Position numbers and translations under genes: made by a program. 64,000 bases of DNA, taken from assembly GCA_963701665.1 (NCBI GenBank), contig OY969622.1, positions 768,001 through 832,000 of the forward strand, given 5' to 3'. The notes beneath the pieces were generated by a model. That model searched no databases and was not told the origin of the DNA. It saw only the letters and a program-made list of their open reading frames with translations. The stretch is from Candidatus Babeliales bacterium. GTDB taxonomy: Bacteria; Babelota; Babeliae; Babelales; JANWKD01. Positions 4,028 through 64,000 of this stretch are shown piece after piece (within the stretch, counting starts at the first letter, position 1; every line of letters begins with the position of its first letter).

Positions 4028-5149
4028 TTAGGAAGATCGTTGCCACATGCCCATGAAATTTTGCGTAACTTTTCCAGCAAGTTGCAAATCAAATAATTGC
4101 GTTTGCAATTCTAAAAGAGAAAGGCCCGTTTTTTGTTCAAGTTCATCGATAGAGACAGGATATTTACATAAGTGAAGCAGTTGAGGGTTTTTATCAGACA
4201 CGTGCATTTGTGCACTCGTTTCATCTTCTTGAACGCGTGTATCATCATCCGCTCGTTCCGCACTCTGATATCCGCACTCGCGTAAAATATCGGTTGCACT
4301 CGTTGCGACATGAGCACCTTGGCGCATCAGTTCATGACAACCCGCGCTCAACGGATCATCAAAAAGTCCAGGAACGGCAAAAACTTCTTTGCCTTGTTCA
4401 AGCGCATGCGATGCCGTAATTAAGGAGCCGCTTTTTGATGCAGCTTGCACAACAACGCACGCTTTGCTTAATCCCGCAATGATACGGTTTCGTGCAGGAA
4501 AATTAGCCGGTAGGGGATACATGTTCATAGGATAGGAAGTAACGAGCGTACCACCATGTTCAATAATAGAAGAAAATAAGCGTACGTTTTGCACCGGATA
4601 AAGATTGTTAAAACCCGCGCCTAATACAACAACAGTTTTGCCGCGTGCATTAAGAGCAGCTTGATGCGCAAAAGTATCAATGCCGCGCGCACCACCACTC
4701 ACGATGGTAATGCCGCACTCGACTAATGGGGGAATAAATGTATCAACACACGTTTTTCCATATGAAGTTGCCTTGCGTGCGCCCACAAAAGCAATACTTT
4801 CAGCGTGATCTGATAAAGGAGTACCTTTTACATACAACACCGCAGGCGGAACATGAATAGAACGGAGCATCGCTGGGTAGGCATCATCTACAAACATAAC
4901 TATGCTCACTCGTTCTTTCTGGATTAATGTTAATTCTTGATCAAGCTTTGCACGATCAAGCAATCCTTCCACAATGAGATGTGCACTTTTTTCAGCGATA
5001 CCACACCGATGCATAAGATCTGTAACTGAAAAATTGTACACTTCAGCAAGAGTATCGTGAGGAATTTTTTCCAGAATGCGATTGATCAGTGCAGGACCAA
5101 CATTATCGATTAATGAGAGGTGCAGTATAAAATCGTGAATGTTCATCAT
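4028..5149 (-). CDS. dprA: DNA-processing protein DprA
   Basis: VGARKAT.YG, IVSGGARGID, FPARNRIIAGLS, SGSLITA, VFAVPG motifs; C-terminal winged helix. Confidence 0.96.
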   Translation of the reverse strand: MMNIHDFILHLSLIDNVGPALINRILEKIPHDTLAEVYNFSVTDLMHRCGIAEKSAHLIVEGLLDRAKLDQELTLIQKERVSIVMFVDDAYPAMLRSIHVPPAVLYVKGTPLSDHAESIAFVGARKATSYGKTCVDTFIPPLVECGITIVSGGARGIDTFAHQAALNARGKTVVVLGAGFNNLYPVQNVRLFSSIIEHGGTLVTSYPMNMYPLPANFPARNRIIAGLSKACVVVQAASKSGSLITASHALEQGKEVFAVPGLFDDPLSAGCHELMRQGAHVATSATDILRECGYQSAERADDDTRVQEDETSAQMHVSDKNPQLLHLCKYPVSIDELEQKTGLSLLELQTQLFDLQLAGKVTQNFMGMWQRSS

Positions 5150-7756
5150 TAGATAAAGTCTAAGCTATCATCCTCTTTGCTAGAATCCGAAGATGGTACA
5201 TCATTCTGTTCCTCTTGCCCAATGAAAATAAAATGCGAATCTTCAAACCCAGAAGCTTTGATCGGCGTATTCTTAGGCGCTTTTGGTGCGTTTGCATTTT
5301 CTTCATGATCAACTGTTGGTTCTTCAAAAGAAACAACTGCCGATAATCTTTGATCTTCATTTAAGCGAATGAGACGCACACCTTGTGCTTGACGGCCCAT
5401 AGTACGAATTTCTGTTGGTGAAAGACGAATAATTTTTCCGGTGGTATCAATAAGCAACACATTTGAACTATCGGTGACAACGGTCAAGCCAATGACATTA
5501 CCATTACGCTCGGTCGTTGGGATAGTGCGTACGCCATAGCCACCGCGATGCGCCACGCGGAAATCATCAGCTTTCACGCGTTTACCATACCCTCGTTCTG
5601 TTGCAAATAAGATATCATTATCATCGTGAATAACTTCCATACCCACCACAAAATCTTTTGATTTCAAGCGAATACCCATCACGCCAGAGGCTTGGCGGCC
5701 CATTTGCCGCACTTCAGTTTCTTTGAAGCGAATTCCTTGGCCTTTTGCTGTTGCAATAACAATTGAATCATTGCCTGAACTGAGTGCACAGAAGACTAAA
5801 TGATCATTGTCACGCAAATTAATTGCACGAATACCTGAGCTTCTAATTTTTGCAAATGCCATTGCATCCGTACGCTTAATAATACCTTCTCGCGTTAACA
5901 ATACTAACGATTTGCCTTCCAAATCACGTGCAGGCAATAATTTTACCACTGTTTCATCCGGCGCTAATGGCAATAAATTAACTATAGCGCGGCCTTTTGC
6001 AATACGAGATCCTTCAGGAACTTCAAACACATTTAAACTATACACGCGGCCTAAATTGGTGAAGAACAGAAGTTCATCATGGGTTTTTGCAACAAAAATA
6101 TCTTGAATTAAATCACCTGATTCATCGAGTGCCGTCATACCCATCTTCCCGCTTCCACCACGATGTTGTACGCCATACGTTCCCAGCGGCACGCGTTTGA
6201 TATAGCCTTTGCTTGTGAGGGTAACGACCACTTCTTCATCAGGAATTAAATCTGCTTCAGTCAGAATATCAATTGGCCCTTCAATTTTGGTGCGACGAGC
6301 ATCAGCATATTCACTTTTAATGGCGATTAATTCTGCTTTTACTTCAGTACGCAAAATAGTTCTATCGGCAAGAATTGATTTATAATATTGAATCGTTTTT
6401 TTCAACTCTTCCATTTCAGTGTAAATTTTTTCTTGCTCCATCCCCGTCAAACGTTGTAAACGCAATTCAAGAATCGCTTTACCTTGTTCAAGTGTTAGTA
6501 AGAAGCGTTTATTAAGGTGAGCAATGGCTTCTTCGGCAGAACGCGACTGTTTGATCAACGCAATAACTTCATCAATATTATTCAAAGCAATGATAAAACC
6601 AGCAAGAATATGCTCGCGCATTTCTGCTTTTTTAAGATCATACACCGTACGCTTATAAATAATCTCATGACGATGTACTAAGAATTCATGCAATAATTGA
6701 CGTAGGGTAAAAACAGATGGCTTATTATCGAGCAACGCTAGCATCAAAATCGATATCGTTGATTGCAAGGAGGTGTATTTAAATAACTGATTGAGCACCA
6801 CGTGATGGAATTTCACCACGTTTGAGTTCAATAACTAAACGCATACCCTTTTTATCAGATTCATCACGAATATTTGAAATACCTTCAATAATCTTATTCT
6901 TTACTAAATCAGCAATTTTAATTGCTAACTCAGCTTTATTAACTTGGAATGGTAATTCAGTGACAATGAGTGCGGAGCCTTTTTTTGTTTCTTCAGTTTC
7001 AACCACACCGCGCAAAATAAGATTCCCTCGTCCCGTTTTATACGCGCGCACAATGCCCGCTCGTCCGCAAATAATGCCACCCGTTGGAAAATCTGGCGCG
7101 GGAATGAGTTGAAAGAGAGCCTCGTCATCGATTGTTTCATTATCAAGATATGCAAGACACGCATCGATAATTTCGCCTAAATTGTGCGGTGGCACGGCGG
7201 TTGCCATACCAACAGCAATACCAGCAGTACCGTTCACTAATAAATTGGGTAATCTGCTTGGCAAAATAACTGGCTCAACGGTTGAATCATCAAAGTTAGG
7301 CACAAAATCAACCGTCTCTTTATCAAGATCAGCTAAAATTTCGCTGGCAATTTTTGCCATACGCACTTCGGTATAACGCATTGCTGCTGCATTATCGCCA
7401 TCGACCGAACCCCAGTTACCTTGACCATCCAGCAATGGATATCGTTTTGAAAAATTTTGGACAAGCCCAACCATACTATTGTAGACAGCCTGATCGCCAT
7501 GCGGATGGTATTTACCAAGAACATCACCCACAACACGCACCGATTTGTGATAGGGCTTATTGTGATAGAAACCAAGTTGTGCCATGGTATAAAGAATACG
7601 CCGATGCACGGGTTTCAACCCGTCACGCACATCAGGTATTGCACGACTGACTATAACCGACATGGCATAATCAAGAAACGACGTCTTTAATTCTTCTTCA
7701 ATAAGAACCGGCTTAATGCCTAACTTTGAAACTTTTTCTTGAGTATCACTTGCCAT
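5149..7756 (-). CDS. gyrA: DNA gyrase subunit A, split by one extra base near 6805
   Basis: ORF 6779..7756 ([24 protein letters not shown]) and ORF 5149..6831 (GyrA-box QHRGGSG, beta-pinwheel repeats) join into 868 aa if one base at 6805/6806 is removed. Confidence 0.95.
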
Positions 7757-17237: not shown

Positions 17238-17768
17238 CTAAAATGGTAAATCATCTTGGAATGGCGGTTCATCTTTGAAAGCAAATTCGCCAGAATTTTC
17301 ATTTGTTGCAGATTTTTTCTTACTTGTTTTGACTTTACTGAGCATCGATTCAGCTGCTAAAACTGCGGGGTCATTACTCACGGGCATTGCTTGTGCATCA
17401 AGATCACCGATTTCAGCGTCAGCGCCAGCTTGCACTGCTGAACCCAAGAAGACAACCCGATCTGCCACCACTGAATGTTTACTGCGTGTTTGGCCATCGG
17501 GCGTTTGCCATGTATCAAATTTTAAACGACCTTCAACTAAAACTGGGCGCCCTTTTTGTAAATATTGACGACAACTTTCTGCTTGCGGCCCAAAAACATC
17601 AATATCGATAAAGCACACTTCTTGCACCATAGCGCCCGTTTGCTTATTTTTATATTGACGATTCACAGCAAGTCCTAAACGACATACTGCTTGCCCAGAA
17701 GGAAGCTGTTTATATTCAGGATCACGCGTTAAGTTTCCAATTAATACAATGCGATTATAACTTGCCAC
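17238..17768 (-). CDS. ssb: single-stranded DNA-binding protein
   Basis: NRIVLIGNLTRDPE, LQKGRPVLVEGRL, C-terminal DDLPF. Confidence 0.97.
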   Translation of the reverse strand: MASYNRIVLIGNLTRDPEYKQLPSGQAVCRLGLAVNRQYKNKQTGAMVQEVCFIDIDVFGPQAESCRQYLQKGRPVLVEGRLKFDTWQTPDGQTRSKHSVVADRVVFLGSAVQAGADAEIGDLDAQAMPVSNDPAVLAAESMLSKVKTSKKKSATNENSGEFAFKDEPPFQDDLPF

Positions 17769-17863: not shown

Positions 17864-19234
17864 TTAGGAAATGATACAACGTTTGCGACGCGCATTATCA
17901 GGTCCTTTCTCATCCAGCTTCTCCTGTATTCTGTAACGTAATATATCTGGTTGCGGGAATGAAGATAAGGTGGCTTCATCGCTAAGCAAACGCGTTAATA
18001 TATCTTTTCTATTATGGTCAATTGCCTTTTCAACAGCAAGTTTAAACGCCAGCTTATACACTGAATCAATGGTTAGCTTTTCAGGAACGCAGAAAATATC
18101 GACCTGCTGATCTTTAGATTCATAATCAACATTTATAAAACTAGGAAAATTATTCTGATCGGCAACAAAATAACACGGATTATCCCCCAATGAGCTTCTT
18201 ATGGTGAATTTTTTAAGCAACTTACCATGAATATCGTATCCCAAAAGGTCACCATATTGGCCTGATGTTATAACTACGTTATTTTTTATGCAAAGTACAA
18301 TTCCATCGATAGACTCCTCTTTTTCAGGTATTTCTTTTTTAGCCATTATTTTTGTTTTTTTTGTATGATGTTCTGCAATTGCTACGATTGAATCATCATC
18401 AGCAATAATAATACGATCGATTTTTTCTTCCGGTATCTCTTCCACCATTTTACTTGCTAAACAGATTTTATAGGATGGTTTTTTTTCGCAGCCAACATAA
18501 AGAAATTGATTATCATGCGTTAACGCAAGAGATTTGATTGGATTATCAACGCTCTTAATCCTATTGTTAAAAAAGCTAAGTTCAGCCAAACTCTGGCTTT
18601 CAATAGATGTTTGATCTTTAATGCCATCGCAGGGAAACGTTAAGATTTTATGCCGAGTAGCTATATACACCACTGGTTTCTTGTCAGTTGAAACGACACA
18701 GTCCTTTTCTTCATTTAATTCTTTTTTCCCCAAAAATCTCAATGGAATTTCGGACGAAAAAAATGAAATTGCTTGCTCAGAAATCCCGAGTAATAAAGCG
18801 ATGTTAGGCACCCGCTCGATATACTGAATTGGATCATTTCTATCCTGATTATTTTTTTGATAGGTAATTTTATTCTCGCTATCGTGCACAAAAAATCCTA
18901 AAGAATTACACCCAAAATGGCATGATTTATATTTTGTTAAAGAGTGCAAATAATAACGTTCATGCAATGAGCGCGTCACTTCTTGCCACTGCGGACATAG
19001 CATAAAATCAATGCGTTCAATAACTTTTTCTTGCAAGGAATCTGGCAAAGATTCTAGGGTGCCCTTAATTCTTTTAACCTCTTTAAATAAAGGCTCATCT
19101 AGATTAAAATTGTCGTAGAAATAATGTGCAGCTGGGCTAATGCAGATAGTTAGGAGCGAAGGCACTTCCATCGCATCGAGACTGAAAAATAAACCCGCTA
19201 AAAAAATTGGTATGAAATTTCTATTCATAGTCAT
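17864..19234 (-). CDS. putative effector: signal peptide, BC-box/SOCS-like motif, degenerate beta-propeller, C-terminal CaaX
   Basis: ..SLDA-MEVPSLLTICISPA..; IKSLALTHDNQFLYVG blade; ends RRKRCIIS. Confidence 0.6.
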   Translation of the reverse strand: MTMNRNFIPIFLAGLFFSLDAMEVPSLLTICISPAAHYFYDNFNLDEPLFKEVKRIKGTLESLPDSLQEKVIERIDFMLCPQWQEVTRSLHERYYLHSLTKYKSCHFGCNSLGFFVHDSENKITYQKNNQDRNDPIQYIERVPNIALLLGISEQAISFFSSEIPLRFLGKKELNEEKDCVVSTDKKPVVYIATRHKILTFPCDGIKDQTSIESQSLAELSFFNNRIKSVDNPIKSLALTHDNQFLYVGCEKKPSYKICLASKMVEEIPEEKIDRIIIADDDSIVAIAEHHTKKTKIMAKKEIPEKEESIDGIVLCIKNNVVITSGQYGDLLGYDIHGKLLKKFTIRSSLGDNPCYFVADQNNFPSFINVDYESKDQQVDIFCVPEKLTIDSVYKLAFKLAVEKAIDHNRKDILTRLLSDEATLSSFPQPDILRYRIQEKLDEKGPDNARRKRCIIS

Positions 19235-33028: not shown

Positions 33029-33586
33029 TTATTTTATGCCTAAATAATATTTAATCGTGTCCCATAAAGAATATTGCATCATTGCATCTTGTTTTACTTC
33101 TTCTTTTGCTGGCAATAATTCCCATTCTTCTAGGCCTTTTTCAGTTTCATCGAGTGGGCTCTCAATGCACGCAACCTCTTTGTGTATAGTGCATAGATTG
33201 TCATACGCGGGCATCATGGCGCCATGATGCAATAAAAGATCAATGATATTAGATCCCTTGTTATGTTTTTTAGCGAATTCTAATGGACTCATCGAACTGA
33301 CATCAACGAGATTTGGATTCGCACCATGCTTTAATAACTCACGTATAACCATGGCCTCATGACCATTAGACTTATACAACGCTATCATCAAGGCTGTTTT
33401 ACCCTCATATGTTGCATTTGGATTCGCTCCTTCTTCAAGAAGCTTTTTTAAGGTAATGATATCGTTTCGCACAACTGCATCAAAAAGATCATAAGAAAGC
33501 GTTTCATCAAAGGTTTGATCAGAAACTGCACGCAATAAACATACGAAAAGACATAATATTGACGCATATTTTATCATAGGATTCAT
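33029..33586 (-). CDS. exported ankyrin-repeat protein
   Basis: Signal peptide; LLEEGANPN..GKTALMIA, LLKHGANPN; tail EEWELLP...SLWDTIKYYLG. Confidence 0.9.
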   Translation of the reverse strand: MNPMIKYASILCLFVCLLRAVSDQTFDETLSYDLFDAVVRNDIITLKKLLEEGANPNATYEGKTALMIALYKSNGHEAMVIRELLKHGANPNLVDVSSMSPLEFAKKHNKGSNIIDLLLHHGAMMPAYDNLCTIHKEVACIESPLDETEKGLEEWELLPAKEEVKQDAMMQYSLWDTIKYYLGIK

Positions 33587-33609
33587 AGTTGATAATAGCT
33601 TTCGTTTAT

Positions 33610-34179
33610 TTAATACCCTAAATAATACTTAACAACATCCCATAGCGAACGTTGCTTTGATGCTTCTTCTTCCGCTATTTCTTCTTTCGTTGGTAAGAAT
33701 TCCCATTCTTTTAGCTCTTGCTCGGCTTGCTCATAAGGACATTCTTGAGGTGCAACTGCGCCGGGGGTATAACCAGCACTCGCGCGTGGCGTAATTTGAG
33801 CGCCATATTGCAACAAAAGATTAATAACTTTAGGATCTTTTTGATATTGAGTCGCATATTCTAATGGACTCATCAAGCTTGCATCAACAAGATTAGGATT
33901 AGCACCGTTTTTGAGTAATTCATCAACAATAACAACCTCATTGCCATTTGATGTATGGAGGGCCACCATCAATGGTGTTTTACCTTCATATTTTGCATTA
34001 AGATTAGCTCCTTGATTAATGAGCTTTTTCAACGTAACGCTATCATTTCGTTCGACGGCATTTAAAAGATCATATGAAAGCAGGTCATGAGTAACTTGTC
34101 GCGAAAAAGGGCGTTCTACTGCATGTAAAGCAACCATAAAAACGCTTAATACTAATACATATTTCATATTAAACTTCAT
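33610..34179 (-). CDS. exported ankyrin-repeat protein (paralog of 33029..33586)
   Basis: GKTPLMVA, LLKNGANPN; tail KEWEFLP...SLWDVVKYYLGY. Confidence 0.9.
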   Translation of the reverse strand: MKFNMKYVLVLSVFMVALHAVERPFSRQVTHDLLSYDLLNAVERNDSVTLKKLINQGANLNAKYEGKTPLMVALHTSNGNEVVIVDELLKNGANPNLVDASLMSPLEYATQYQKDPKVINLLLQYGAQITPRASAGYTPGAVAPQECPYEQAEQELKEWEFLPTKEEIAEEEASKQRSLWDVVKYYLGY

Positions 34180-34723
34180 ATTTACCTCCTACTTCAATAA
34201 GTGTCCAATCTTCTTCTTCAGGATTGATCTCAATAAATTCCTTTTGCAATCTTGCTAATTCGCGTTCTTTTCTCTCTTTTTCTCGTTGCACACGATTTGT
34301 TGCAAGATAATCATCCATAGTTTTGCCATAGGCGTCTTTCACCTCGGAATCAGCACCTGCGGAAAGTAATAAATTCATAGGATCTGTATAGCCAAAATCA
34401 GCAGCAAAGGTTAATGCCGTCATGCCATTGCCGGCGATAAAATCTAATCCATTATTTTTTCGGGCCGTTTCCAATAAATATTCTAAAATACTCGCATCAA
34501 CGCGATCAGTAAAATTTTCAATTTGATGCATAATTGCAGTTTTTCCATCCCTTTGAGCATTAGGATTAGCCCCTAAAAGTAATAATGTTTCTACCATAGT
34601 AGGTCGATTAGAACCTCTTTGAAGAATTACATCAATTAATTGCTGATCCCGTTCAGAATTTGCATACATGGCTCCTGTTAAAAAAGCCAGTATTATCACT
34701 ACTATCTTTTTCATTACCCTCAC
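34169..34723 (-). CDS. exported ankyrin-repeat protein
   Basis: LLLLGANPN..GKTAIM, GMTALTFAA, LLSAGAD; tail EEEDWTLI. Confidence 0.88.
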   Translation of the reverse strand: MRVMKKIVVIILAFLTGAMYANSERDQQLIDVILQRGSNRPTMVETLLLLGANPNAQRDGKTAIMHQIENFTDRVDASILEYLLETARKNNGLDFIAGNGMTALTFAADFGYTDPMNLLLSAGADSEVKDAYGKTMDDYLATNRVQREKERKERELARLQKEFIEINPEEEDWTLIEVGGKYEV

Positions 34724-46177: not shown

Positions 46178-48820
46178 TTAAGACAACTTAAAATCCTGAC
46201 GAGGTTCAATCCCAAGAAGGGCGTAAATTTCACTGGCAAATAATGTTTCTTTTTCATATAAAACGTTAGCCAACTTCTCGAGCTTATCACGATTGTTTTT
46301 CAAGAGTTGAATAACCTTTTGGTAAGAGCTTTCAAGCAACTTTTGTACCTCAGCATCGATACGTTCAGCTGTTTTTTGGGAGTATTGGTATTCACCCTGG
46401 TTTTGGGTATATACCACTGGCCCCATTTCCTCTGACATACCATAATGGCATACCATTTTACGCGCTATTTCAGTAGCTTTTTCAAAATCATTAGAAGCCC
46501 CGGTAGCAAGCACATTAAAGACTAATTCTTCAGCCGCTCGCCCGCCTAAGCATACCATGATTACCGCAAGCATTTCCTCCCTCGTTTGAGTATATTTGTC
46601 TTTCTCCGGTAGCGAGTGCGTTACTCCTAACGCTCGACCACGCGGAATAATAGTAACTTTATGGAGTGGGTCACTATGTTCTGGCATCAGTAATCTAACG
46701 AGCGCATGTCCTGATTCATGAAATGCGGTAATTTTTCGTTCTTCTGGGGAAAGTATAATAGTCTTAAGTGCTTTACCCAGCATCATTTTATCACTCGCTT
46801 CTTCAAAATCATGAACGGTAACAAATTCTTGTTGCGGATCTTTTGAAGCATTTAAAGCAGCTTCATTGACTAAATTAGCTAGATCAGCGCCCGAAAATCC
46901 TGGTGTTCCGCGAGCAATTTTGCTCAAGTCAACGGCAACATCTAATTTTACATTTTTAGCATGGAGCTTTAATATTTTTTCTCGACAGGTAATATCGGGA
47001 TAAGGAACTTCTACACGTCTATCAAATCTGCCCGGTCGTAAAAGTGCTTTATCGAGTGTTTCTGGTCTGTTTGTTGCAGCCATAACAATCACCGATGTTC
47101 CTTCAGTATCAAAGCCATCCATTTCTGTTAATAACTGATTGAGGGTTTGGTTACGTTCTTCATGGCCACCAATACCAGTCACCCGTTTAGCACCAACTGC
47201 ATCAATTTCATCAATGAATATGATACTTGGATTGTGCTTGCGCGCCTGGTTAAATAAATCACGCACGCGTGAAGCGCCAACACCAACATACATTTCAACA
47301 AATTCCGAAGCACTCACCGAAAAGAAAGGGCAATTTGCTTCGCCAGCAACTGCCTTTGCGAGCAATGTTTTACCATTACCCGGCTCACCGACAAGCAAAA
47401 TACCACGGGTGATTTTAGCACCAAGGCGCTTATAGCGTTCGGGATTCTTCAAAAAGTCGACGACATCTTTTAATTCTTCTTTTGCTTCTTCAACACCAGC
47501 TACATCAGCAAAGGTACATTTGACTTGAGATGGCATAAATAATTTTGCTTTTGCATTGCCTTTTGCTGCAGTACTAAGATTTGATGATTGATTTCTTTGC
47601 GATTCAAGCATAACTTTATGCGCTTCTTCAAGATCCTGCTGATCAACACATTCTTTATTTTTTTTAGAAGCATTAATTGCTGCTTTATTCATAAGATTTG
47701 CAAGATCAGCACCGCTAAAGCCTGCAGTTTCTTCAGCAACTTTTTTTAAGTTAACATCCGCACTCATCTTCAATGCTTGAGCGTTTATTGCTAAAATTTG
47801 TTCTCGGCTTGGCGTATCAGGAAATGAAACTTCAACACGGCGATCAAATCTTCCTGGTCGTAAAAGCGCTTTATCTAAAACATCAGGCATATTTGTTGCG
47901 GCAATAACAATGACTGAAGATCCAGCCGTATCAAAACCATCCATTTCAGTAAGTAATTGGTTGAGCGTTTGCTCACGTTCATCGTGACCCCCGCCAAAAC
48001 CACTCCCTCGTTGACGACCAATAGCATCTATTTCATCAATGAAAACAATACTTGGCGCGTGTTTACGAGCTTGTGCAAAAAGATCACGCACGCGTGCAGC
48101 ACCAACGCCAACAAAAACCTCGATAAAATCTGAACCAGTAATACTGAAAAACGGGCAATTTGCTTCGCCAGCGACTGCTTTTGCAAGTAAGGTTTTACCA
48201 TTCCCTGGCTCACCTATCAATAAAACACCGCGGGTAACTTTAGCCCCTAATCGCTTGTATTTTTCGGGATTTTTCAAGAAATCTACAACATCTTTAAGCT
48301 CTTCTTTTGCGTCGTGGGCACCTGCCACCGATTTAAAGGTAACTTTTATCGTAGAAGGCATAAACATTTTTGCTTTACTTTTGCCCATACTAAAGATATT
48401 ACTGCCGCCGCCTGAACCACGACTTTGTTTGAAGAAATACCAAAAACCAAGTGGCATAAGAAGGAAAGAAGCAATCAACAGTAAATGCCAGAAACTAAAC
48501 TGTGATGATAACGGCGCGACTGAGAATTGAACATTATGGTCACGCAAGAGATCAAGATTCTTTGGATTATCAGCAACGACGGTTTCAAAATGGGTATCAT
48601 CTTTCATGATGCCATACACATCTTGACCATTGATATGTACTGATTTTACTTCATTATTTTCAATTGCATCCAAATACTTTGAATAAGAAATATTTTTTAC
48701 TTGTCGCGTGTAATCAGTTAATTTAGTGAGTAACGCGATAGATATTACAAAGAAAAGGACTACAAAGACTAAGTGTTTAGGCCCGCGTGCAAAAGGATTA
48801 TTTTTTAATTTGTGTCTCAT
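46178..48820 (-). CDS. ftsH: ATP-dependent zinc metalloprotease FtsH with tandem AAA+ domains
   Basis: Two TM helices; two [24 protein letters not shown] sets 825 bp apart; one HESGH M41 domain. Confidence 0.96.
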
Positions 48821-48997
48821 AATACACCCATTCTTACTTAAATTTTCACATAAAATTGGAGCATAAGCCATTTCGTGACAGAATCATGAAATGGATCTGA
48901 TAATATATTCTAATTGTACTATAAAATATAAAAAATTGAAAGTTCTGAGTAATTATATTATAAAAGATGCGTACTGTCGATCTTTTCTGAAGAAAAA

Positions 48998-54564: not shown

Positions 54565-55872
54565 TTATGATACTGCGCACCATGTTGATGATTTTTCAGG
54601 AACAAGATAAGGCTGCAAAATAGCTGCTAATATGGGCTTATTCTGCATAAGATTCTTAACAGCTTCTTTAACAAGCGAAGGTGCTTTATTGAGTTGAACT
54701 TTTTCATCAATAGTTATCATCTCGAGCAACCATCGCAAGGTTAACGCATCTTCGATTGATAATTTTTGTATATCTGGTTGTAAATCTGGATTTGTTATAT
54801 GCCATTTTTCAACGATTCTTTGATAGGCCATAGTCTTATCACAGATCAACTGATTTTGACTGTCGTACCCTACTGCCTTCTGGGTAGTATACTTTTTAAT
54901 ATTTTCAAGTGAAGCAGCATCCCATATTTGTATTAACCATTTTTTTGTATCTAGTAATGATGATGTTACTAAGTTTGCACCATTTGGTGAGAATGAAACA
55001 GAATGTGCTGGCCCTTGTGAAGTAGCCAGCAATTGACACTTTTGTGTCGCTAAATTCCAAAGGCGTACAATTTTGTCTTCCGTTGCGACTGCTAATATCT
55101 TGTTAGAAGGGGAAAAACGTAATGCAGTAACACATTTTCTGCTTGCGAATTCCGCAATCATACTATCTTCTTGTATACTCCATACAACCACTTTAGAACA
55201 ATTATTCATAGCAAGCGCTATAAGTGATTTATCATCTGAGAAAACGAAGTGTGATGGCGAATTATTTTTTATTTCATCAATAAGTAATTTAGGTAATGTA
55301 TGACTAGCATTAAAACCGTATTTTTTTGCCATTGTTGAAGCAACAAACAAAGACATTTCTGCTGGCATCGTGTCTGAGGGTGGCGCAGTAAATGTTTGCG
55401 TAATTTTAAGCATTTTTTCAAGATGCGTAGTATTAAATTCTTTTATGAGAACATTACTCAACAAATCTGAAGCTATGTTCATAAGAGTACAACAGTCTAA
55501 ATAGTTAGCTGTATTTAATAAAGGTATCAGTGCGTTTAACGATAGTTTTTTTGCTGCGAGGAAAGCTTTGCATTTTTTAAGTATTTCTTCTTTAGATAAA
55601 GTTTTTGATTGTTGAACTAAAAAGTCACTTAATTCTTTAATAATAGACATCTCGCGTGAAGTAACAACATCTGATACTACCAAAGGATTTTGAGTTGTGT
55701 CATCACAGTCTGCGATCATATGAGTAAGTAGTTTTGATTCTTGTATGGTTTCATCGGTAAAGGTAAATTTTCCACCGTCTCGCGTTTCCACCACTATTTC
55801 CATAGCAGAAAGTGAGAATGCGGTATTTATGAGAAACAACATTAAATTTTTTATTACTTTTTTACTAAGCAT
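54565..55872 (-). CDS. putative effector: signal peptide, Skp1/elongin-C-like domain, WD40 repeats, C-terminal CaaX
   Basis: IVVETRDGGKF..SKLLTHMIAD..LLNTANYLD..L; VTALRFSPSNKILAVATEDKIVRLWN; ends WCAVS. Confidence 0.8.
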   Translation of the reverse strand: MLSKKVIKNLMLFLINTAFSLSAMEIVVETRDGGKFTFTDETIQESKLLTHMIADCDDTTQNPLVVSDVVTSREMSIIKELSDFLVQQSKTLSKEEILKKCKAFLAAKKLSLNALIPLLNTANYLDCCTLMNIASDLLSNVLIKEFNTTHLEKMLKITQTFTAPPSDTMPAEMSLFVASTMAKKYGFNASHTLPKLLIDEIKNNSPSHFVFSDDKSLIALAMNNCSKVVVWSIQEDSMIAEFASRKCVTALRFSPSNKILAVATEDKIVRLWNLATQKCQLLATSQGPAHSVSFSPNGANLVTSSLLDTKKWLIQIWDAASLENIKKYTTQKAVGYDSQNQLICDKTMAYQRIVEKWHITNPDLQPDIQKLSIEDALTLRWLLEMITIDEKVQLNKAPSLVKEAVKNLMQNKPILAAILQPYLVPEKSSTWCAVS

Positions 55873-56469: not shown

Positions 56470-59400
56470 ATGAAGCGATCCCCCGTTTTCTACATTATTA
56501 TATTGGGCGCTCTATTTTGCACTTCAGCGATTTCGGCTTCCACAGATATAATGCACCATCCAGATTTCAGTACTGATATTATAGTTGATAAAGACTGTAA
56601 ACAGTTTATCCAAGATATTATCAAAGAAGCACTCATTGATAATACGTATGAACAGCTTTCCGAGGGATTATTACATTGTTACGAAAGAATTCAATGCGAT
56701 CCTGAATGTTGCACATTACCCCTTAATGATCTTATAGATGCCTTCCCTGAATTAGTTGCAAAATTAAAAGAGAAGCTTAAAGCTCCCCGCCCTCCTCAGG
56801 GCAATCATGCTATTGTTGGCAGCAATACCATTGATTTTGGATCTCTTATAGCATTACTAATACGATTAGAATTTCTGATCAATCAACTAGCGCAACAACA
56901 AAGCTCTTGCTGTAGCCAGATACTCTCTGACTTTCAGCAAACATGGTCTATCCTTGATCATCTCTCATTTACTACTACGGTGGATCTTTCTTCCGTGTTT
57001 ACGGCGCTCAATGCATGCTGCTCAAATATAACCTCGGAATTCCAACAAACATGGACCATCCTTGATCATCTCTCACTTACTATTACGGCGGATCTTTCTT
57101 CTGTGTTTACGGCGCTCAATGCATGCTGCTCAAACATAAATTCTGAATTCCAACAAACATGGACTATTTTAGCCGGTCTTTCACTAACTGCTACCGTTGA
57201 TCTTTCTTCTGTGTTTACGGGGCTCAACGCATGCTGCTCAAACATAAATTCTGAATTCCAGCAAACATGGACTATGTTAGCCGCCGGGTTTAATGGTACC
57301 TTCAGTACACTTAATAGTTTTAATACCACTGTTACCACAGATTTTTCATCAACCTGGACAATTATCAATACCGGATTCAATGGAACTTTCTCTGCGCTCA
57401 ATGCATGCTGCTCAAACATAAATTCTGAATTCCAACAAACATGGACTATTTTAGCTGCTGATTTCAATGGCACATTCTCTGCAATTAATGCGATCAACAC
57501 TAATGCAAATAACACGTTCACCGTAATCGCAGATCTAAAAACTACGGTGACCAATGACTTTGCTGCAACATGGACAATTATTAATGCTGGATTCAATGGA
57601 ACCTTCTCTGCGCTCAATGCTTGTTGCACGAATATAAATTCTGAGTTTCAACAAACTTGGACGATCTTAGCTGCTGATTTCAATGGCACATTCTCCGCAA
57701 TCAATGCGATCAACACTAATGCAAATAACACGTTCACCGTAATCGCAGATCTAACAACTACGGTGACCAATGACTTTGCCGCAACATGGACAATTATTAA
57801 TGCCGGATTCAACGGCACCTTCTCTGCACTCAATGCTTGCTGCACGAATATAAATTCCGAATTTCAACAAACATGGACAATTTTAGCCGCTGATTTCAAT
57901 GGCACATTCTCCGCAATCAATGCGATCAACACTAATGCAAATAACACATTCACCGTAATAGCAGATCTAACAACTACGGTGACCAATGACTTTGCTGCAA
58001 CATGGACAATTATTAATGCTGGATTCAATGGAACCTTCTCTGCACTTAATGCTTGCTGCAACAATATAAATTCCGAATTTCAACAAACATGGACTATCTT
58101 AGCTGCTGATTTCAATGGCACATTCTCTGCAATTAATGCGATCAACACTAATGCAAATAACACGTTCACCGTAATCGCAGATCTAAAAAACACTGTTACC
58201 AATGACTTTGCTGCAACATGGACAATTATTAATGCCGGATTTAATGGAACCTTTTCAGCGCTCAATGCTTGTTGCACGAATATAAATTCTGAGTTTCAAC
58301 AAACATGGACTATCTTAGCTGCTGATTTCAATGGCACATTCTCCGCAATCAATGCAATAAGCATAGATGCAAATGGCACCTTCTCTGCACTGGCAGATTT
58401 AAAAAATACAATCACCAATGACTTTGCTGCAACGTGGACAATTCTTAATGCTGGATTCAATGGAACTTTCTCTGCGCTCAATGCTTGCTGCACAACTATA
58501 AATTCTGAGTTTCAACAAACCTGGACTATCTTAGCTGCTGATTTCAATGGCACATTCTCCGCAATTAATGCGATCAACACCAATGCAAATAACACATTCA
58601 CCGTAATCGCAGATCTAACAACTACGGTGACCAATGACTTTGCTGCAACGTGGACAATTATTAATGCTGGATTCAACGGCACCTTCTCTGCACTCGATGC
58701 TTGTTGCAACAACATAAATTCTGAGTTTCAACAAACGTGGACTATCTTAGCTGCTGATTTCAATGGCACATTCTCTGCAATTAATGCGATCAACACTAAT
58801 GCAAATAACACGTTCACCGTAATCGCAGATCTAACAACTACGGTGACCAATGACTTTGCTGCAACGTGGACAATTATTAATGCTGGATTCAATGGCACGT
58901 TCTCTGCACTCAATGCCTGTTGCACAACTATAAATTCCGAATTTCAACAAACATGGACTATCTTAGCTGCTGATTTCAATGGCACATTCTCTGCAATTAA
59001 TGCGATCAACACTAATGCAAATAATACGTTCACCGTAATCGCAGATCTAAAAACTACGGTGACCAATGACTTTGCTGCAACATGGACAATTATTAATGCT
59101 GGATTTAATGGAACCTTCTCTGCACTCAATGCTTGTTGCAACAACATAAATTCTGAGTTTCAACAAACATGGACCATCTTAGCTGCTGATTTCAATGGCA
59201 CATTCAGTATGCTTTCAAATCTTTCTACTGCAGTGACCAATGACTTTGCTGCGACCTGGACCATTTTAGCTGCTGGCTTTAATGGAACCTTCAGCGCAAT
59301 TAATGCCATCACGCTTGATGCAAATGGCACCTTTAGCGCACTATTAGATTTGAAAAATACTATCACTAATGATTTTGCTGCAACGTGGACAATTTTAAAC

Positions 59401-61158
59401 GCTGAGTTCAATGGAACGTTCTCTGCACTCAATGCTTGTTGCACTAACATCAATTCTGAATTCCAACAAACATGGACTATCTTAGCTGCCGGATTTAATG
59501 GCACATTCAGCACACTCGCTACTATTCCTGGCGATTTTAACGCTACATGGACTATTTTGGCCTCTGGCTTTAATGGAACTTTCACAGCGCTCAATGCTTG
59601 TTGCACTAACATCAATTCCGAATTCCAACAAACTTGGACTATCTTAGGTGCTGGTTTCAATGGGACTTTCAGCACACTCGCTACTATTCTTGGCGATTTT
59701 AACGCTACGTGGACTATTTTAGCCTCTGGCTTTAACGGCACCTTCTCGGCACTCAACGCCTGTTGCACTAACATTACTTCTGAGTTCCAACAAACTTGGA
59801 CTATTTTAAATGTCTTAACCGAAAACCTTTCAAATCCGGTTATGATTACGCAAGCAAATTTTGGAACAGCAGGTGGAACGCCCTATATCATTTCAACGTC
59901 TGGCGTATATAGGTTGGGTAGCAATGTTGTTTTCACACCATCTATAACAACTACTGCTATACTTATTACGACAACCAACGTTGTCCTTGATCTACAACTC
60001 TTCACATTAAGCCAAGGAAATACCACCACGGGCGTGAATGCTATCGTCGTTAGTTCTGGTATGACCGATGTGTATATTCAAAATGGCACAATAAAAAACT
60101 TCACACGTTCTGCAATATCATTCCAAGGGAACAATCGAAGAGTAGGAATTGATCAAACCACCACCGTATCATGTGCGGTGCGCGGCATCGAGTTAATCTC
60201 ATCGAGCGCACCGAGCCAAAATGTTATCATTCAAAATTGCAATGTATACAATTGCTCAACAGCAGCAACCGCCGATAATGCATTAATTTTACAATCATGT
60301 AATAAAGGAATAATAAAGGATTGCACATTGAATGGTAATGGTGTTAATTCAAATACCATAAATGTACTTAATTTTAATAGCTGCATTGAATTTATTGTGT
60401 CAGATATCAGTATGTATGAAAATACTGCCTCTTCGCTCAACTGCATATCATTAGATAGCACGTCTTCACTTAATTACTTTGATAACTGTATCATGATGAA
60501 TAATCAATCCATTAATACTCTCAATGGGTTTACTATTTCTAGCAACGCCAATATTTTTAACAATTGCATCGTCAATGGAAATATAAGTTATTCGACAAAT
60601 ACCAGTCCTCTAAACGGATTCAATATAGCGGGATCTTTCAATACAATGACTAACTGCGCAGTATCCTTTAATCAAACACCAGTGCCGACAAGTTCGACGA
60701 CAGTTGCCCCTATTAATGCTTTTGACTTAAGCGGATCTGAAAACATCCTATCTAATTGTCAATCAATATTCAACCAGGCCAACAGTCGTTTTGAGGGATG
60801 TTTTATCTCTACTACGAGCAATATCATCGATCACTTTATAGCCGCTAATAATATAGGTTTCTTAGGTGTCTGTGCTGGCATTTTCATTAACAGCGCCTCA
60901 GCTGTTAACAATATAGTAAGGAATTGTTTATTCGTAAATAATCTTGGTTATACTACTGTGAGTGGACAACCCACCAATGGTTTCGGACTAGATAATGCGG
61001 CTACGGGATATTTAATCTATGACAATGTTGCGTATATAAATCAAACTACACAAATTTTTGGTGTCGCTGCAGGATCTTTAACAACGCCAACAGCACCAGC
61101 ATCACAAAACTTGGCAGCTGTTACAGGTGCCTGGACTAATTTAGCACTCGCTGCTTAA
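56470..61158 (+). CDS. giant repetitive exported fibre-like protein with C-terminal right-handed beta-helix
   Basis: Signal peptide; 72-aa (216-bp) repeats with FQQTWT/FNGTF/ACC; C-terminus ISTSGVYRL..NVVLDL..IQNGTI..IQNC. Confidence 0.85.
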   Translation: MKRSPVFYIIILGALFCTSAISASTDIMHHPDFSTDIIVDKDCKQFIQDIIKEALIDNTYEQLSEGLLHCYERIQCDPECCTLPLNDLIDAFPELVAKLKEKLKAPRPPQGNHAIVGSNTIDFGSLIALLIRLEFLINQLAQQQSSCCSQILSDFQQTWSILDHLSFTTTVDLSSVFTALNACCSNITSEFQQTWTILDHLSLTITADLSSVFTALNACCSNINSEFQQTWTILAGLSLTATVDLSSVFTGLNACCSNINSEFQQTWTMLAAGFNGTFSTLNSFNTTVTTDFSSTWTIINTGFNGTFSALNACCSNINSEFQQTWTILAADFNGTFSAINAINTNANNTFTVIADLKTTVTNDFAATWTIINAGFNGTFSALNACCTNINSEFQQTWTILAADFNGTFSAINAINTNANNTFTVIADLTTTVTNDFAATWTIINAGFNGTFSALNACCTNINSEFQQTWTILAADFNGTFSAINAINTNANNTFTVIADLTTTVTNDFAATWTIINAGFNGTFSALNACCNNINSEFQQTWTILAADFNGTFSAINAINTNANNTFTVIADLKNTVTNDFAATWTIINAGFNGTFSALNACCTNINSEFQQTWTILAADFNGTFSAINAISIDANGTFSALADLKNTITNDFAATWTILNAGFNGTFSALNACCTTINSEFQQTWTILAADFNGTFSAINAINTNANNTFTVIADLTTTVTNDFAATWTIINAGFNGTFSALDACCNNINSEFQQTWTILAADFNGTFSAINAINTNANNTFTVIADLTTTVTNDFAATWTIINAGFNGTFSALNACCTTINSEFQQTWTILAADFNGTFSAINAINTNANNTFTVIADLKTTVTNDFAATWTIINAGFNGTFSALNACCNNINSEFQQTWTILAADFNGTFSMLSNLSTAVTNDFAATWTILAAGFNGTFSAINAITLDANGTFSALLDLKNTITNDFAATWTILNAEFNGTFSALNACCTNINSEFQQTWTILAAGFNGTFSTLATIPGDFNATWTILASGFNGTFTALNACCTNINSEFQQTWTILGAGFNGTFSTLATILGDFNATWTILASGFNGTFSALNACCTNITSEFQQTWTILNVLTENLSNPVMITQANFGTAGGTPYIISTSGVYRLGSNVVFTPSITTTAILITTTNVVLDLQLFTLSQGNTTTGVNAIVVSSGMTDVYIQNGTIKNFTRSAISFQGNNRRVGIDQTTTVSCAVRGIELISSSAPSQNVIIQNCNVYNCSTAATADNALILQSCNKGIIKDCTLNGNGVNSNTINVLNFNSCIEFIVSDISMYENTASSLNCISLDSTSSLNYFDNCIMMNNQSINTLNGFTISSNANIFNNCIVNGNISYSTNTSPLNGFNIAGSFNTMTNCAVSFNQTPVPTSSTTVAPINAFDLSGSENILSNCQSIFNQANSRFEGCFISTTSNIIDHFIAANNIGFLGVCAGIFINSASAVNNIVRNCLFVNNLGYTTVSGQPTNGFGLDNAATGYLIYDNVAYINQTTQIFGVAAGSLTTPTAPASQNLAAVTGAWTNLALAA
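57432..59160 (+). repeat. about eight near-identical 216-bp intragenic tandem repeats
   Basis: Antisense shadow ORFs recur at 57648, 57864, 58080 ... 59160 (period 216). Confidence 0.9.
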
Positions 61159-61215: not shown

Positions 61216-64000
61216 ATGAAGCAATCCCTCGTTTTCTATACTATTATAATGGGTGCTCTATTTTGCACTTCAGCAATGCCAATTTCGATGGATATGCTGT
61301 ATCAGCAAGACTTTACTCCTGATATTATTATTGACAGCGAATGTAAAAAATTCATTCAAACTATTATTGAAGAAGCGCTCATTGAAAATACGCAGGAACA
61401 ACTTTCTGAGGGATTATTAAAATGTTACGCAACAATTCAACGAGACCCTGAATGTTGCACGTTACCGCTTAATGATCTCATAGACGCTTTCCCTGAATTA
61501 GTAGCAAAATTAGAAGATAAACTTAAAGCCCCTCGTCCACAACAAGGCGGTCATGCTATTGTTGGCGGCAACACCATTGATTTTGGACCCATTATAGCCT
61601 TATTACTACGGCTAGAATTTCTCATCAATCAAATAAACCAAAGCTCTTGTTGTAACCAGATACTTTCTGACTTTCAGCAAACATGGACAATCCTTAATCA
61701 TCTTTCATTTACAACTTCCGTTGATCTTTCTCCTGTATTTACCGCACTCAACGCATGCTGCTCAAACATAACCTCGGAATTCCAGCAAACATGGACTATT
61801 CTTGCTAATCTCTCAGTTACTGCTACCGTGGATCTTTCTCCCGTGTTTACGGCGCTTAATGCATGCTGCTCAAACATAACCTCGGAATTCCAACAAACAT
61901 GGACTATACTAGCCAATCTCTCGATTACTGCCACAGTGGATCTTTCTTCTGTGTTTACAGTACTCAATGCGTGCTGCTCAAATATAAATTCTGAATTTCA
62001 ACAAACATGGACTATCTTAGCCTCCGGATTTAATGGAACTTTTAGCATACTTTCAAATCTTACTACTAGTACTGCCGATTTTGCTGCAACATGGACAATT
62101 TTAAATGCCGGATTCAATGGAACTTTCTCTGCGCTCAACGCATGCTGCTCAAACATAAATTCTGAATTCCAACAAACATGGTCAATTTTAGCTGCTGATT
62201 TTAATGGAACTTTTAGCACTATCGCAAACATTAATGTCGAAACAAATGGTACTTTTACTGCAATTGCTGATTTAAAAAACACTATCACCACAGACTTTGC
62301 TGCAACGTGGACAATTTTAAACGCTGGTTTCAATGGAACCTTCTCCGCTCTCAATGCTTGTTGCACAACTATAAATTCTGAATTTCAACAAACATGGTCA
62401 ATTTTAGCTGCTGATTTCAATGGAACTTTCTCCGCAATCAATGCAATAAACACAGACGCAAATGGCACCTTTAGCGCAATTGCTGATTTAACAACTACTA
62501 TCACCAATGATTTTGCTGCAACGTGGACTATGCTTAACGCTGGTTTTAATGGCACCTTCTCTGCTCTCAGCGCATGTTGCACAACTATAAATTCAGAATT
62601 CCAACGAACATGGACTATTTTAGCCGCCGGCTTTAATGGAACTTTCTCTGCAATCAATGCAATTAATATTGATGCAAATGGCACCTTCACTGCCTTAGCA
62701 GATTTAACAACTACTATCACCAATGACTTTGCTGCAACGTGGACTATGCTTAACGCTGGTTTTAATGGCACCTTCAGCGCACTTAACGCATGCTGCACGA
62801 ATATAAACTCTGAGTTTCAACAAACATGGACTATTTTAGCTGCTGATTTCAATGGCACATTCTCTGCAATTAATGCCATCACTTTTGATGCAAATGGTAC
62901 CTTCTCTGCGATTGCTGATTTGAAAAACACTATCACCAATGATTTTGTTGGTACGTGGACTATTCTTAACGCTGGATTCAATGGAACCTTTTCTGCACTC
63001 AATGCTTGCTGTACAACTATAAATTCTGAATTCCAACAAACGTGGACTATCCTAGCTGCTGATTTCAATGGCACATTCTCTGCAATTAATGCCATCACTA
63101 TTGATGCAAATGGCACCTTCTCTGCAATTGCTGATTTGAAAAACACTATCACTAATGACTTTACTGCAACATGGACAATTCTTAATGCTGGATTCAATGG
63201 GACTTTCTCTGCGCTCAACGCCTGTTGCACAACTATAAATTCTGAATTTCAACAAACTTGGACTATCCTAGCCGCCGGGTTTAATGGTACATTCTCTGCA
63301 ATTAATGCCATCACTATTGATGCAAATGGCACTCTTACTGCGTTAGCAGATTTAAAAAATACTATCACTAATGATTTTGCTGCAACATGGACAATTCTTA
63401 ATGCTGGATTCAATGGAACCTTCTCTGCACTCAATGCTTGCTGTACAACTATAAATTCTGAATTCCAACAAACGTGGACTATCCTAGCTGCTGATTTCAA
63501 TGGCACCTTCAGCGCTATCGCAAACATTATTCCCGAAGCAAACGGTACTTTCACTGCATTAGCAGATTTAAAAAATACTATCACCAACGACTTTGCTGCA
63601 ACGTGGACAATTCTTAATGCCGGCTTTAATGGAACTTTCAGCGCACTCAATGCCTGCTGCACAACTATAAATTCTGAATTTCAACAAACATGGACAATTT
63701 TAGGCGCTGGTTTCAATGGAACTTTCAGCGCTATCGCAAACATTAATGCCGAAGCGAATGGTACTTTTACTGCGTTAGCAGATTTAACAACTACTATAAC
63801 CAATGACTTTGCCGCAACGTGGACAATTCTTAATGCTGGATTCAATGGAACTTTCTCTGCGCTCAATGCTTGTTGCACAACTATAAACTCCGAATTTCAA
63901 CAAACATGGACTATCTTAGCTGCTGGTTTTAATGGAACTTTTAGTATACTTTCAAATCTTACTACTACGGTGACCAATGATTTTGCTGCAACGTGGACTA
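61216..64000 (+). CDS. second giant repetitive fibre-like protein (paralog; runs off window end)
   Basis: Missing from the ORF track because it has no stop in the window; manual translation MKQSLVFYTIIMGALFCTSA..DPECCTLPLNDLIDAFPELV.., same repeats, same frame at 63961 (TTTVTNDFAATWT). Confidence 0.9.
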   Translation, partial: MKQSLVFYTIIMGALFCTSAMPISMDMLYQQDFTPDIIIDSECKKFIQTIIEEALIENTQEQLSEGLLKCYATIQRDPECCTLPLNDLIDAFPELVAKLEDKLKAPRPQQGGHAIVGGNTIDFGPIIALLLRLEFLINQINQSSCCNQILSDFQQTWTILNHLSFTTSVDLSPVFTALNACCSNITSEFQQTWTILANLSVTATVDLSPVFTALNACCSNITSEFQQTWTILANLSITATVDLSSVFTVLNACCSNINSEFQQTWTILASGFNGTFSILSNLTTSTADFAATWTILNAGFNGTFSALNACCSNINSEFQQTWSILAADFNGTFSTIANINVETNGTFTAIADLKNTITTDFAATWTILNAGFNGTFSALNACCTTINSEFQQTWSILAADFNGTFSAINAINTDANGTFSAIADLTTTITNDFAATWTMLNAGFNGTFSALSACCTTINSEFQRTWTILAAGFNGTFSAINAINIDANGTFTALADLTTTITNDFAATWTMLNAGFNGTFSALNACCTNINSEFQQTWTILAADFNGTFSAINAITFDANGTFSAIADLKNTITNDFVGTWTILNAGFNGTFSALNACCTTINSEFQQTWTILAADFNGTFSAINAITIDANGTFSAIADLKNTITNDFTATWTILNAGFNGTFSALNACCTTINSEFQQTWTILAAGFNGTFSAINAITIDANGTLTALADLKNTITNDFAATWTILNAGFNGTFSALNACCTTINSEFQQTWTILAADFNGTFSAIANIIPEANGTFTALADLKNTITNDFAATWTILNAGFNGTFSALNACCTTINSEFQQTWTILGAGFNGTFSAIANINAEANGTFTALADLTTTITNDFAATWTILNAGFNGTFSALNACCTTINSEFQQTWTILAAGFNGTFSILSNLTTTVTNDFAATWT

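Follow-up and report, generated by a model that had tools for sequence, protein, structure and literature searches.

A predicted Sec-exported WD40-type propeller protein with a conserved CaaX tail in Candidatus Babeliales, a candidate for farnesylation by the protist host

What a bacterium living inside another cell might do with a protein that begins with an export signal and ends with a CaaX box is the question raised by a gene of a Candidatus Babeliales bacterium (GenBank assembly GCA_963701665.1, contig OY969622.1), analysed here in a window of 64,000 nucleotides comprising positions 768,001 to 832,000 of the contig. The bacterium belongs to the Dependentiae, a widespread and almost uncultured phylum of which only intracellular protist parasites are known and whose effector biology is little charted. 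The gene lies on the minus strand of window positions 17864-19234 and encodes the protein called P0001 throughout. An interpretation drawn up from the letters and their translations, here called the sequence-only reading, had proposed a membrane-anchored substrate receptor for elongin BC/cullin ligases, with an N-terminal BC-box, propeller-like strands and a CaaX tail; all the strings that it quoted are found in P0001. Its picture of a secreted, eukaryote-directed propeller protein bearing a functional-looking CaaX anchor is supported at the level of sequence and model, and the reading as a cullin-ligase receptor, though possible, is not established. P0001 is probably a Sec-exported effector that would be farnesylated by the protist host and anchored to host membranes.

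The evidence that carries this view lies at the C-terminus. The terminal tetrapeptide CIIS of P0001 conforms to the CaaX rule in its aliphatic a2 and in its X residue, and a serine or glutamine at X directs farnesylation. The cysteine at position -4 is kept in all five relatives (P0003, P0004, P0005, P0006, and P0007), down to 23% identity, with tails that read CIIS, CIIS, CAIS, CLIS (P0006), and CSLQ (P0007), that is, C-[I/A/L/S]-[I/L]-[S/Q]; C453, I455, and S456 are invariant in alignment A1. The residues preceding the box differ among the relatives, RRKR being present in only two of the six CaaX-ending members. The likeness to K-Ras that the sequence-only reading saw in a polybasic stretch followed by CaaX holds for P0001 and its 86% relative P0004, and fails for the other CaaX-ending members, which have no RRKR. 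In the structural model described below, residues 444-456 are predicted with a local distance difference test score (pLDDT) under 50 and have no secondary structure.

CaaX-like ends are concentrated in the secretome. The genome encoding P0001 (G000) is a single contig of 1,337,192 bp (1.34 Mb; 37.3% G+C, 93.6% complete), in which open reading frames (ORFs) were called crudely, as the longest of at least 80 amino acids by greedy non-overlap, and classified by an 11-residue hydropathy window within the first 40-50 residues, at a threshold of 2.0. A CaaX-like tetrapeptide ends 10 of its 1230 ORFs, all with signal-like N-termini: 9 of the 516 whose N-terminus is hydrophobic and which have no other transmembrane segment, versus 1 of the 534 without a hydrophobic N-terminus, this lone exception being another WD40 protein of the window (54565-55872), with a hydropathy of 1.84 against the threshold of 2.0. 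Register shifts of 1-20 residues leave 0-4 such ends in the hydrophobic class. The regular expression was fixed after this list had been seen and then applied unchanged to two further genomes, (i) G001, from another genus of the same family, with 7/550 versus 0/572 (shifted controls, mean 1.15, maximum 3), and (ii) G022, from another family of the order, with 1.2 of 1.23 Mb covered, with 5/492 versus 0/436 (controls, mean 1.4, maximum 4). Pooling the three Babeliales genomes, with ORFs carrying further transmembrane segments kept in the hydrophobic class, gives 23 of 2102 versus 1 of 1542 others (Fisher p 3.9e-5), compared with a mean of 7.3 and a maximum of 15 in the shifted registers; a stricter CaaX expression gives 15 versus 1. 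The proteome-wide count that the sequence-only reading had proposed as a check thus lies above background in the signal-peptide-like ORFs of all three genomes, and CaaX on signal-peptide proteins is a recurring design, with about ten cases in the P0001 genome and replication in G001 and G022. Kept in five of five relatives and belonging to a set enriched in the secretome, the tail of P0001 is beyond chance.

Who would use such a tail is narrowed by the enzymes at hand. The prenyltransferase repeat PF00432 is not found in the 93.6%-complete P0001 genome, and prenylation would therefore need a eukaryotic enzyme. Since the tail is conserved, enriched in the secretome and disordered, and since PF00432 is missing, farnesylation by the host is the most economical reading. 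The X residue of the 24 tails is S in 9, Q in 4, N in 4, Y in 3, L in 2, F in 1, and I in 1, and the X position of CaaX boxes is described as flexible (PMC9231725). Two further features of such tails were observed. A Ser/Trp-rich stretch, outside the classical CaaX rule, stands just before the cysteine in four of them (SSWCTLY, SSSWWCSLQ, SSWWQKQCSLQ, and SSTWCAVS, at G000:C1:42574-42984, 613653-614042, and 1287967-1288512, and window 54565-55872), and a cluster of small signal-peptide genes at G001:C1:812523-826230 comprises five CaaX-like ends (CLLN, CLVS, CILF, CIIN, and CLIS) and one CNLY.

The second CaaX protein of the window allows the idea of a repeated design to be specified. The protein at 54565-55872 has a Skp1-like segment (...LNTANYLDCCTLMNIASDLL...) recognised by Pfam Skp1_POZ at E 4.4e-4, below the cut-off, and its sole full-length relative, P0013 (80% identical), keeps CAVS; hhalign relates it to P0001 with a probability of 13.8%, through the WD repeats only. 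The sequence-only reading had taken the two as unrelated orphans repeating a combination of cullin module, propeller and CaaX. What recurs is export plus CaaX, because most of the roughly ten CaaX-tailed proteins of the genome, which are small, have no ligase-like domain (two have ankyrin repeats); a cullin module joined to a propeller is not the shared design. An exported, CaaX-tailed bacterial Skp1 look-alike fused to a propeller nevertheless merits a study of its own.

At the other end of P0001, a Sec-type N-terminus is the sole targeting signal, assigned by inspection and hydropathy only. It comprises R5, a hydrophobic core from F7 to L19 with a hydropathy of 2.51 over 11 residues, and an end L-D-A|M with a small residue at -1, leaving MEVPSLLTICISPA as a plausible mature N-terminus. 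The junction LDA|ME (window 19166-19177) fits a pattern, [A/S/G]-Met-[Glu/Gln/Asp/Asn], which 220 of 696 hydrophobic-N ORFs of the same genome carry at residues 13-48, versus 55 of the same 696 at residues 61-96 and 63 of 534 other ORFs; G001 displays the same excess at its signal-peptide junctions. A Met-acidic mature N-terminus may, we suggest, be selected as non-destabilising in the host cytosol. The genome encodes two detected secretins, and VirB4 was not detected in it. Two gspD genes are reported in all TM6 genomes (PMC4776705), and a cultured Dependentiae isolate is reported to have signal peptides on 44% of its coding sequences together with many ankyrin proteins (PMC6561590).

In the mechanism that we propose, (i) the signal peptide would be removed at A21|M22 and P0001 would exit the bacterium by a Sec-dependent route; (ii) a farnesyltransferase of the host cytosol would lipidate C453 on the flexible tail, as the motif, its conservation and its enrichment suggest; (iii) the farnesyl group and the RRKR patch would pin the protein to a host membrane; (iv) the WD40 propeller, whose fold is given by the model, would serve as a platform binding a candidate host protein; and (v) the three helices at the N-terminus and those at the C-terminus would link the propeller with a host adaptor or else do no more than cap it.

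The AlphaFold2 (AF2) model of P0001, built on an alignment of seven sequences, has a mean pLDDT of 70.9 and a predicted template modelling score of 0.68. Residues 1-24 are disordered, the signal peptide having a pLDDT of about 32, and residues 83-384 form about 28 strands. Foldseek returns at least 500 matches in the PDB at E <= 0.001 (best, 2.4e-9), and VIA-align superimposes the model on the THO subunit Tex1 (7apx_E) with Z 18.8 and a root mean square deviation (rmsd) of 4.4 A over 291 aligned residues, dozens of other seven-bladed propellers lying within one Z unit of this match. The family profile likewise retrieves Tex1 among PDB sequences (E 7.7e-4). At the sequence level the propeller has weak, though consistent, support: the only Pfam match on P0001 is PF04053, at 21.7 bits versus a cut-off of 57, the WD40 repeat model does not exceed its gathering score, and the propeller matches in P0001 and its relatives are weak and below threshold; a paralog at L005 clears the Pfam WD40 cut-off (30.4 versus 27). 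The propeller-like strands of the sequence-only reading thus correspond to a real WD40-type propeller, the fold whose absence it had named as a ground for refutation.

The propeller is flanked by two helical modules. The N-terminal one has a pLDDT of 84-95 in the full model and, modelled in isolation, folds into the same three helices at a pLDDT of 74; the C-terminal one is better conserved than any other part of the family, and other Babeliales ORFs match it by itself. Searches of the ESM Atlas give no usable match to the whole protein and, for residues 22-85, scores of 0.82 and 0.78 to unnamed eukaryotic clusters, below the lead threshold.

P0001 itself is nearly an orphan. A word-indexed protein search finds three relatives, and an exhaustive HMMER search of 1.84 billion representatives at E <= 0.001 finds only four, namely P0003 (65% identical), P0004 (86-87%, partial), P0006 (31%), and P0007 (23%); P0005, 59% identical, comes from the word-indexed search. 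The match to P0001 itself in the protein collection is 100% identical over 454 amino acids and starts at Met3. Scans of genome and metagenome contigs with the family alignment add no further relatives, and a profile search across 151 Babeliales genomes finds family matches in seven, its own genome counted. Several of these cover one helical module alone, either the N-terminal or the C-terminal, and lie in proteins of 425-862 amino acids that have a signal peptide, a WD40-like central part and no CaaX; across the Babeliales matches the two modules usually co-occur. The family is thus small and lineage-specific, comprising a signal peptide, a three-helix module, a propeller and a helical module, with the CaaX tail gained in one clade. 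P0006 is the ortholog in a genome of the same genus (G003), where a run of seven A interrupts the frame (L004, about 2700-2730); a signal peptide and then AMRVPSLKDICL are encoded in the upstream frame, and both frames together provide the signal peptide, an SLKDICL box and the remainder of the P0001 ortholog, so that the frameshift is either that of a pseudogene or an assembly error. Transposase/integrase-like ORFs adjoin truncated members of the family at L173 2530-3249 and L181 1-1004 (G001).

Given a predicted membrane anchor and a propeller, the function of the helices separates the readings that remain. The one that survives best is possible, if not likely: P0001 would act, independently of ubiquitin ligases, as a scaffold or decoy anchored in the membrane, its propeller sequestering a host protein, or relocating it, at the membrane into which the farnesyl group inserts, and its helices forming only a structural cap. 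Both helical modules are the best modelled and conserved parts of the chain and co-occur in paralogs that have no CaaX box, nothing ties the N-terminal module to any adaptor family, and the small, ligase-free character of most CaaX-tailed proteins in the genome points the same way. Set against it are the invariant leucine and cysteine in the first turn of helix 1, which are also expected of a docking helix, and the ligase-adaptor-like domain of the other CaaX protein of the window. Modules that travel together are compatible with either role, structural cap or docking site.

A more specific proposal, in line with the sequence-only reading, is that the N-terminal module is of BC-box/VHL or SOCS type and docks host elongin C, with elongin B and Cul2 or Cul5, which would make P0001 a membrane-anchored substrate receptor; we consider this unlikely. 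The segment SLLTICISPA fits the BC-box consensus (S/T/P)LxxxCxxx(A/I/L/V) and opens helix 1, its serine acting as helix cap. In alignment A4 of ten N-terminal modules from several genera, whose segments were cut by an L...C pattern from proteins that had themselves come from the profile search, the only invariant columns are L27, C31, and one downstream proline; an unguided full-length alignment pairs SLQAICL of a paralog with SLLTICI of P0001. Left out of A4 are L174, which matches the C-terminal module only and has a different spacing (TLFDKAVC), and one more N-terminal match (G002:C2:666353). The claim of a BC-box stands as far as the presence of the motif and the invariance of L27 and C31 are concerned, and it is weakened by the frequency of the pattern, which is at chance genome-wide (43 matches in 1230 ORFs versus 34.2 +/- 5.0 in shuffles); the combined BC-box and Cul2-box pattern in the same genome is not above shuffles either.

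The downstream part of the putative box is less regular. LPDSLQEKV, within LESLPDSLQEKV (residues 60-71), fits PhiPxxPhixxxPhi and opens helix 3, and as in WSB1 and the ASB proteins a WD40 or ankyrin domain stands in the same chain as the box. Some Cul2 receptors, the ZYG11 family, have an N-terminal VHL box and a long spacer, and would offer the nearest eukaryotic layout. In elongin BC-box receptors the Cul2 box is placed 8-23 amino acids after the BC-box, and the Cul5 box of SOCS-box receptors has LPxP, with a proline in fourth position, according to PMC3355856. In contrast, LPDSLQEKV lies 27 amino acids past A35, LP is kept in only five of the ten A4 members, P0001 reads LPDS in place of LPxP, and its box is N-terminal, unlike that of SOCS-box proteins. 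A motif of the same kind, [S/T]LKxxCLxx[ILV], follows the signal peptide and precedes ankyrin repeats in L165, L169, and L170 of the P0001 genome, an arrangement that recalls ASB/WSB architectures as described in that text (PMC3355856). L169 and L170 together lie at G000:C1:605995-608660, and L165, at 1073296-1074159, ends in CILQ.

Family-level searches place the module in none of the known ligase groups. Pfam SOCS_box (PF07525) gives nothing at the P0001 locus at E <= 10 in a search of its genome, and SOCS_box, VHL and F-box models match neither P0001, nor its relatives, nor any of the ten N-terminal modules; the F-box model PF12937 hits only other loci of the genome, none over the cut-off and none at the P0001 locus, and P0001, its relatives and the A4 members give no PF00646 match by hmmscan either. 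A profile of the N-terminal module retrieves no SOCS, VHL or elongin-binding protein among PDB sequences; dynein light chains, its best match there (E 0.05), were judged spurious. The corresponding hidden Markov model finds only P0001 and the known paralog in the genome. Foldseek finds no match to the isolated module at E <= 0.001 (best E, 1.4); by VIA its best match, at Z 6.2, is a designed helical protein, with generic helical bundles and no SOCS, VHL or F-box protein among the 50 matches listed. The role of receptor for elongin BC/cullin ligases is thus not borne out beyond the motif match, with no Pfam family, specific fold match or LPxP behind it, and the usual co-occurrence of the N- and C-terminal modules is what would be expected if they were packed together. 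As for the elongin BC part, it amounts to a conserved motif that places P0001 in none of the families.

Combining the strands gives a bolder picture, in which the Babeliales possess a Sec-exported class of effectors that use host prenylation and the Leu/Cys helix of farnesylated P0001 docks elongin C or a Skp1-fold adaptor, either that of the host or the bacterial Skp1-like protein 36 kb away, building a cullin-RING ligase on the host membrane; we rate its chances as low. If true, it would make P0001 the first bacterial hijacker of BC-box type, a strategy so far known from viruses, an outcome that we hold at the same low odds; should the N-terminal module bind a cullin adaptor, BC-box mimicry would reach beyond viruses into bacteria.

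Lower still stands the proposal of another cullin-RING receptor, either a divergent F-box that binds the host Skp1 or the bacterial Skp1-like protein of the window, or a DCAF-type helix-loop-helix on DDB1. Three helices right before the WD40 domain reproduce the layout of Cdc4/FBXW proteins, in which, as in FBXW8 and the DCAF CSA, a short helical module stands just N-terminal to the propeller. Foldseek aligns 1nex_B, 3mks_D, and 7z8b_F over 434-484 columns, CSA (4a11_B) aligns from model residue 53 with Z 17.2 and an rmsd of 4.1 over 296 aligned residues, and the same genome encodes a secreted protein with Skp1-like POZ, WD40 and CaaX. These structural matches (CSA chains, Z 17.2-17.7) stem, however, from the propeller and rank level with dozens of unrelated WD40 proteins at Z 17-18.8, the isolated module resembles generic bundles only, and P0001 has no F-box or F-box-like Pfam match; we consider this proposal very unlikely.

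Several considerations weigh against host farnesylation itself. The ORF calling and the signal-peptide test are crude in-house heuristics; the regular expression was set post hoc, which leaves G001 and G022 as the only clean replications, and that in G022 is weak, with 5 against a control maximum of 4; X is N, Y or I, and thus non-classical, in 8 of 24 tails; and the frameshift in G003, unless it is an assembly error, suggests that the gene may be dispensable. Lipidation, export and host localisation of P0001 are predictions only, and the passage of a Sec-exported protein across a vacuolar membrane, if one is present, is not accounted for. The alternative that the tail is not a prenylation signal, with P0001 staying in the periplasm or outer membrane and its cysteine serving a disulfide or another bacterial sorting step, would explain the Sec-type N-terminus as the one targeting signal, the SSWWC, SSWC, and SSTWC stretches before several boxes and the non-classical X residues, and is nonetheless improbable in view of a cysteine exactly at -4 with an aliphatic a2, an enrichment lost on register shifts of 1-20 residues, an X of S or Q in 13 of 24 tails, and WD40, ankyrin and Skp1-like domains that point to eukaryotic targets.

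Host farnesylation of an exported effector has precedents. [quoted passage not shown] The N-terminal cullin-ligase box of AnkB has as its counterpart only a BC-box-like motif. AnkB differs in that its F-box is canonical, whereas P0001 matches neither F-box nor SOCS-box; in its ankyrin repeats in place of WD40, with no sequence relationship; and in its injection by a type IV system, in contrast to the Sec signal peptide of P0001 in a genome with no VirB4 detected. The Legionella effectors PelC and PelE and Salmonella GtgE also have a C-terminal CaaX box for host prenylation and membrane association (PMC13081727, PMC13423502), and differ from P0001 in phylum, delivery system and domains, none being a WD40 protein by their abstracts. 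P0001 would thus resemble the prenylated effectors in its anchor and differ in phylum, in delivery with a Met-first junction, in its WD40 body and in having no recognisable ligase box.

Full-text searches, with subscription journals and supplements outside their scope, retrieved no paper that brings Dependentiae together with CaaX or with prenylation, or Babela with prenyl; Dependentiae and farnesyl co-occur in two papers with no link drawn, one having its farnesyl passage on Legionella and the other dealing with plant endophytes. The restriction of CaaX to signal-peptide proteins provides a simple handle for predicting which orphan proteins reach the host cytosol, and would extend the exploitation of host prenylation beyond the Legionella and Salmonella paradigms, without an injection system.

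The coordinates of P0001, of its parts and of the two other signal-peptide ORFs discussed are collected in the table below.

Table. Features of the P0001 locus and of the second CaaX protein (window coordinates).
Feature	Position	Strand	Remark
P0001, whole ORF, 456 amino acids	17864..19234	minus	stop codon at 17864-17866 included
Signal peptide, residues 1-21 (MTMNRNFIPIFLAGLFFSLDA)	19172..19234	minus	predicted cleavage A21|M22
N-terminal three-helix module, residues 22-80	18995..19171	minus	helices 27-41, 49-61, 65-78
BC-box-like SLLTICISPA, residues 26-35	19130..19159	minus	start of helix 1
Cul2-box-like LPDSLQEKV (PhiPxxPhixxxPhi), residues 63-71	19022..19048	minus	start of helix 3
WD40-type beta-propeller, residues 83-384, about seven blades	18083..18988	minus	low confidence at 223-305
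C-terminal helical module, residues 389-441 (…YKLAFKLAVEKAIDHNRKDIL…)	17912..18070	minus	pLDDT 90-95
Polybasic RRKR, residues 449-452	17879..17890	minus	in disordered tail 444-456
CaaX box C453-I-I-S456	17867..17878	minus	Cys at -4
Signal-peptide ORF upstream of P0001, 125 amino acids	19234..19611	minus	stop shares one base with P0001 start
Signal peptide, Skp1-like POZ, WD40 and ...SSTWCAVS, 435 amino acids	54565..55872	minus	other CaaX protein of the window

The P0001 gene is adjoined by ssb (17238-17768) on one side and by the small signal-peptide ORF on the other, past which follow a CDP-alcohol phosphatidyltransferase gene and then mnmA; the order ssb, P0001 ortholog, small ORF, phosphatidyltransferase and mnmA is kept in the sole other genome of the genus. 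A promoter and terminator scan gives no signal above shuffles.

Elsewhere in the window, gyrA is split into two overlapping ORFs on the minus strand (5149-6831 and 6779-7756), the N-terminal one, of 325 amino acids, covering DNA_topoisoIV positions 1-275 and that of 560 amino acids covering positions 274-430 and the C-terminal propeller. Three ankyrin-repeat genes encoding 184-189 amino acids stand in tandem at 33029-34723 (minus strand). FtsH, at 46178-48871 (minus strand), comprises 897 amino acids with two AAA modules and has full-length Babeliales/Dependentiae relatives that are 62-89% identical. Two huge neighbouring ORFs on the plus strand (56470-61158, 1562 amino acids, and 61216-63999, more than 928 amino acids) have only repetitive Pfam matches of low specificity, and shadow ORFs of 137 amino acids recur on the strand opposite to them.

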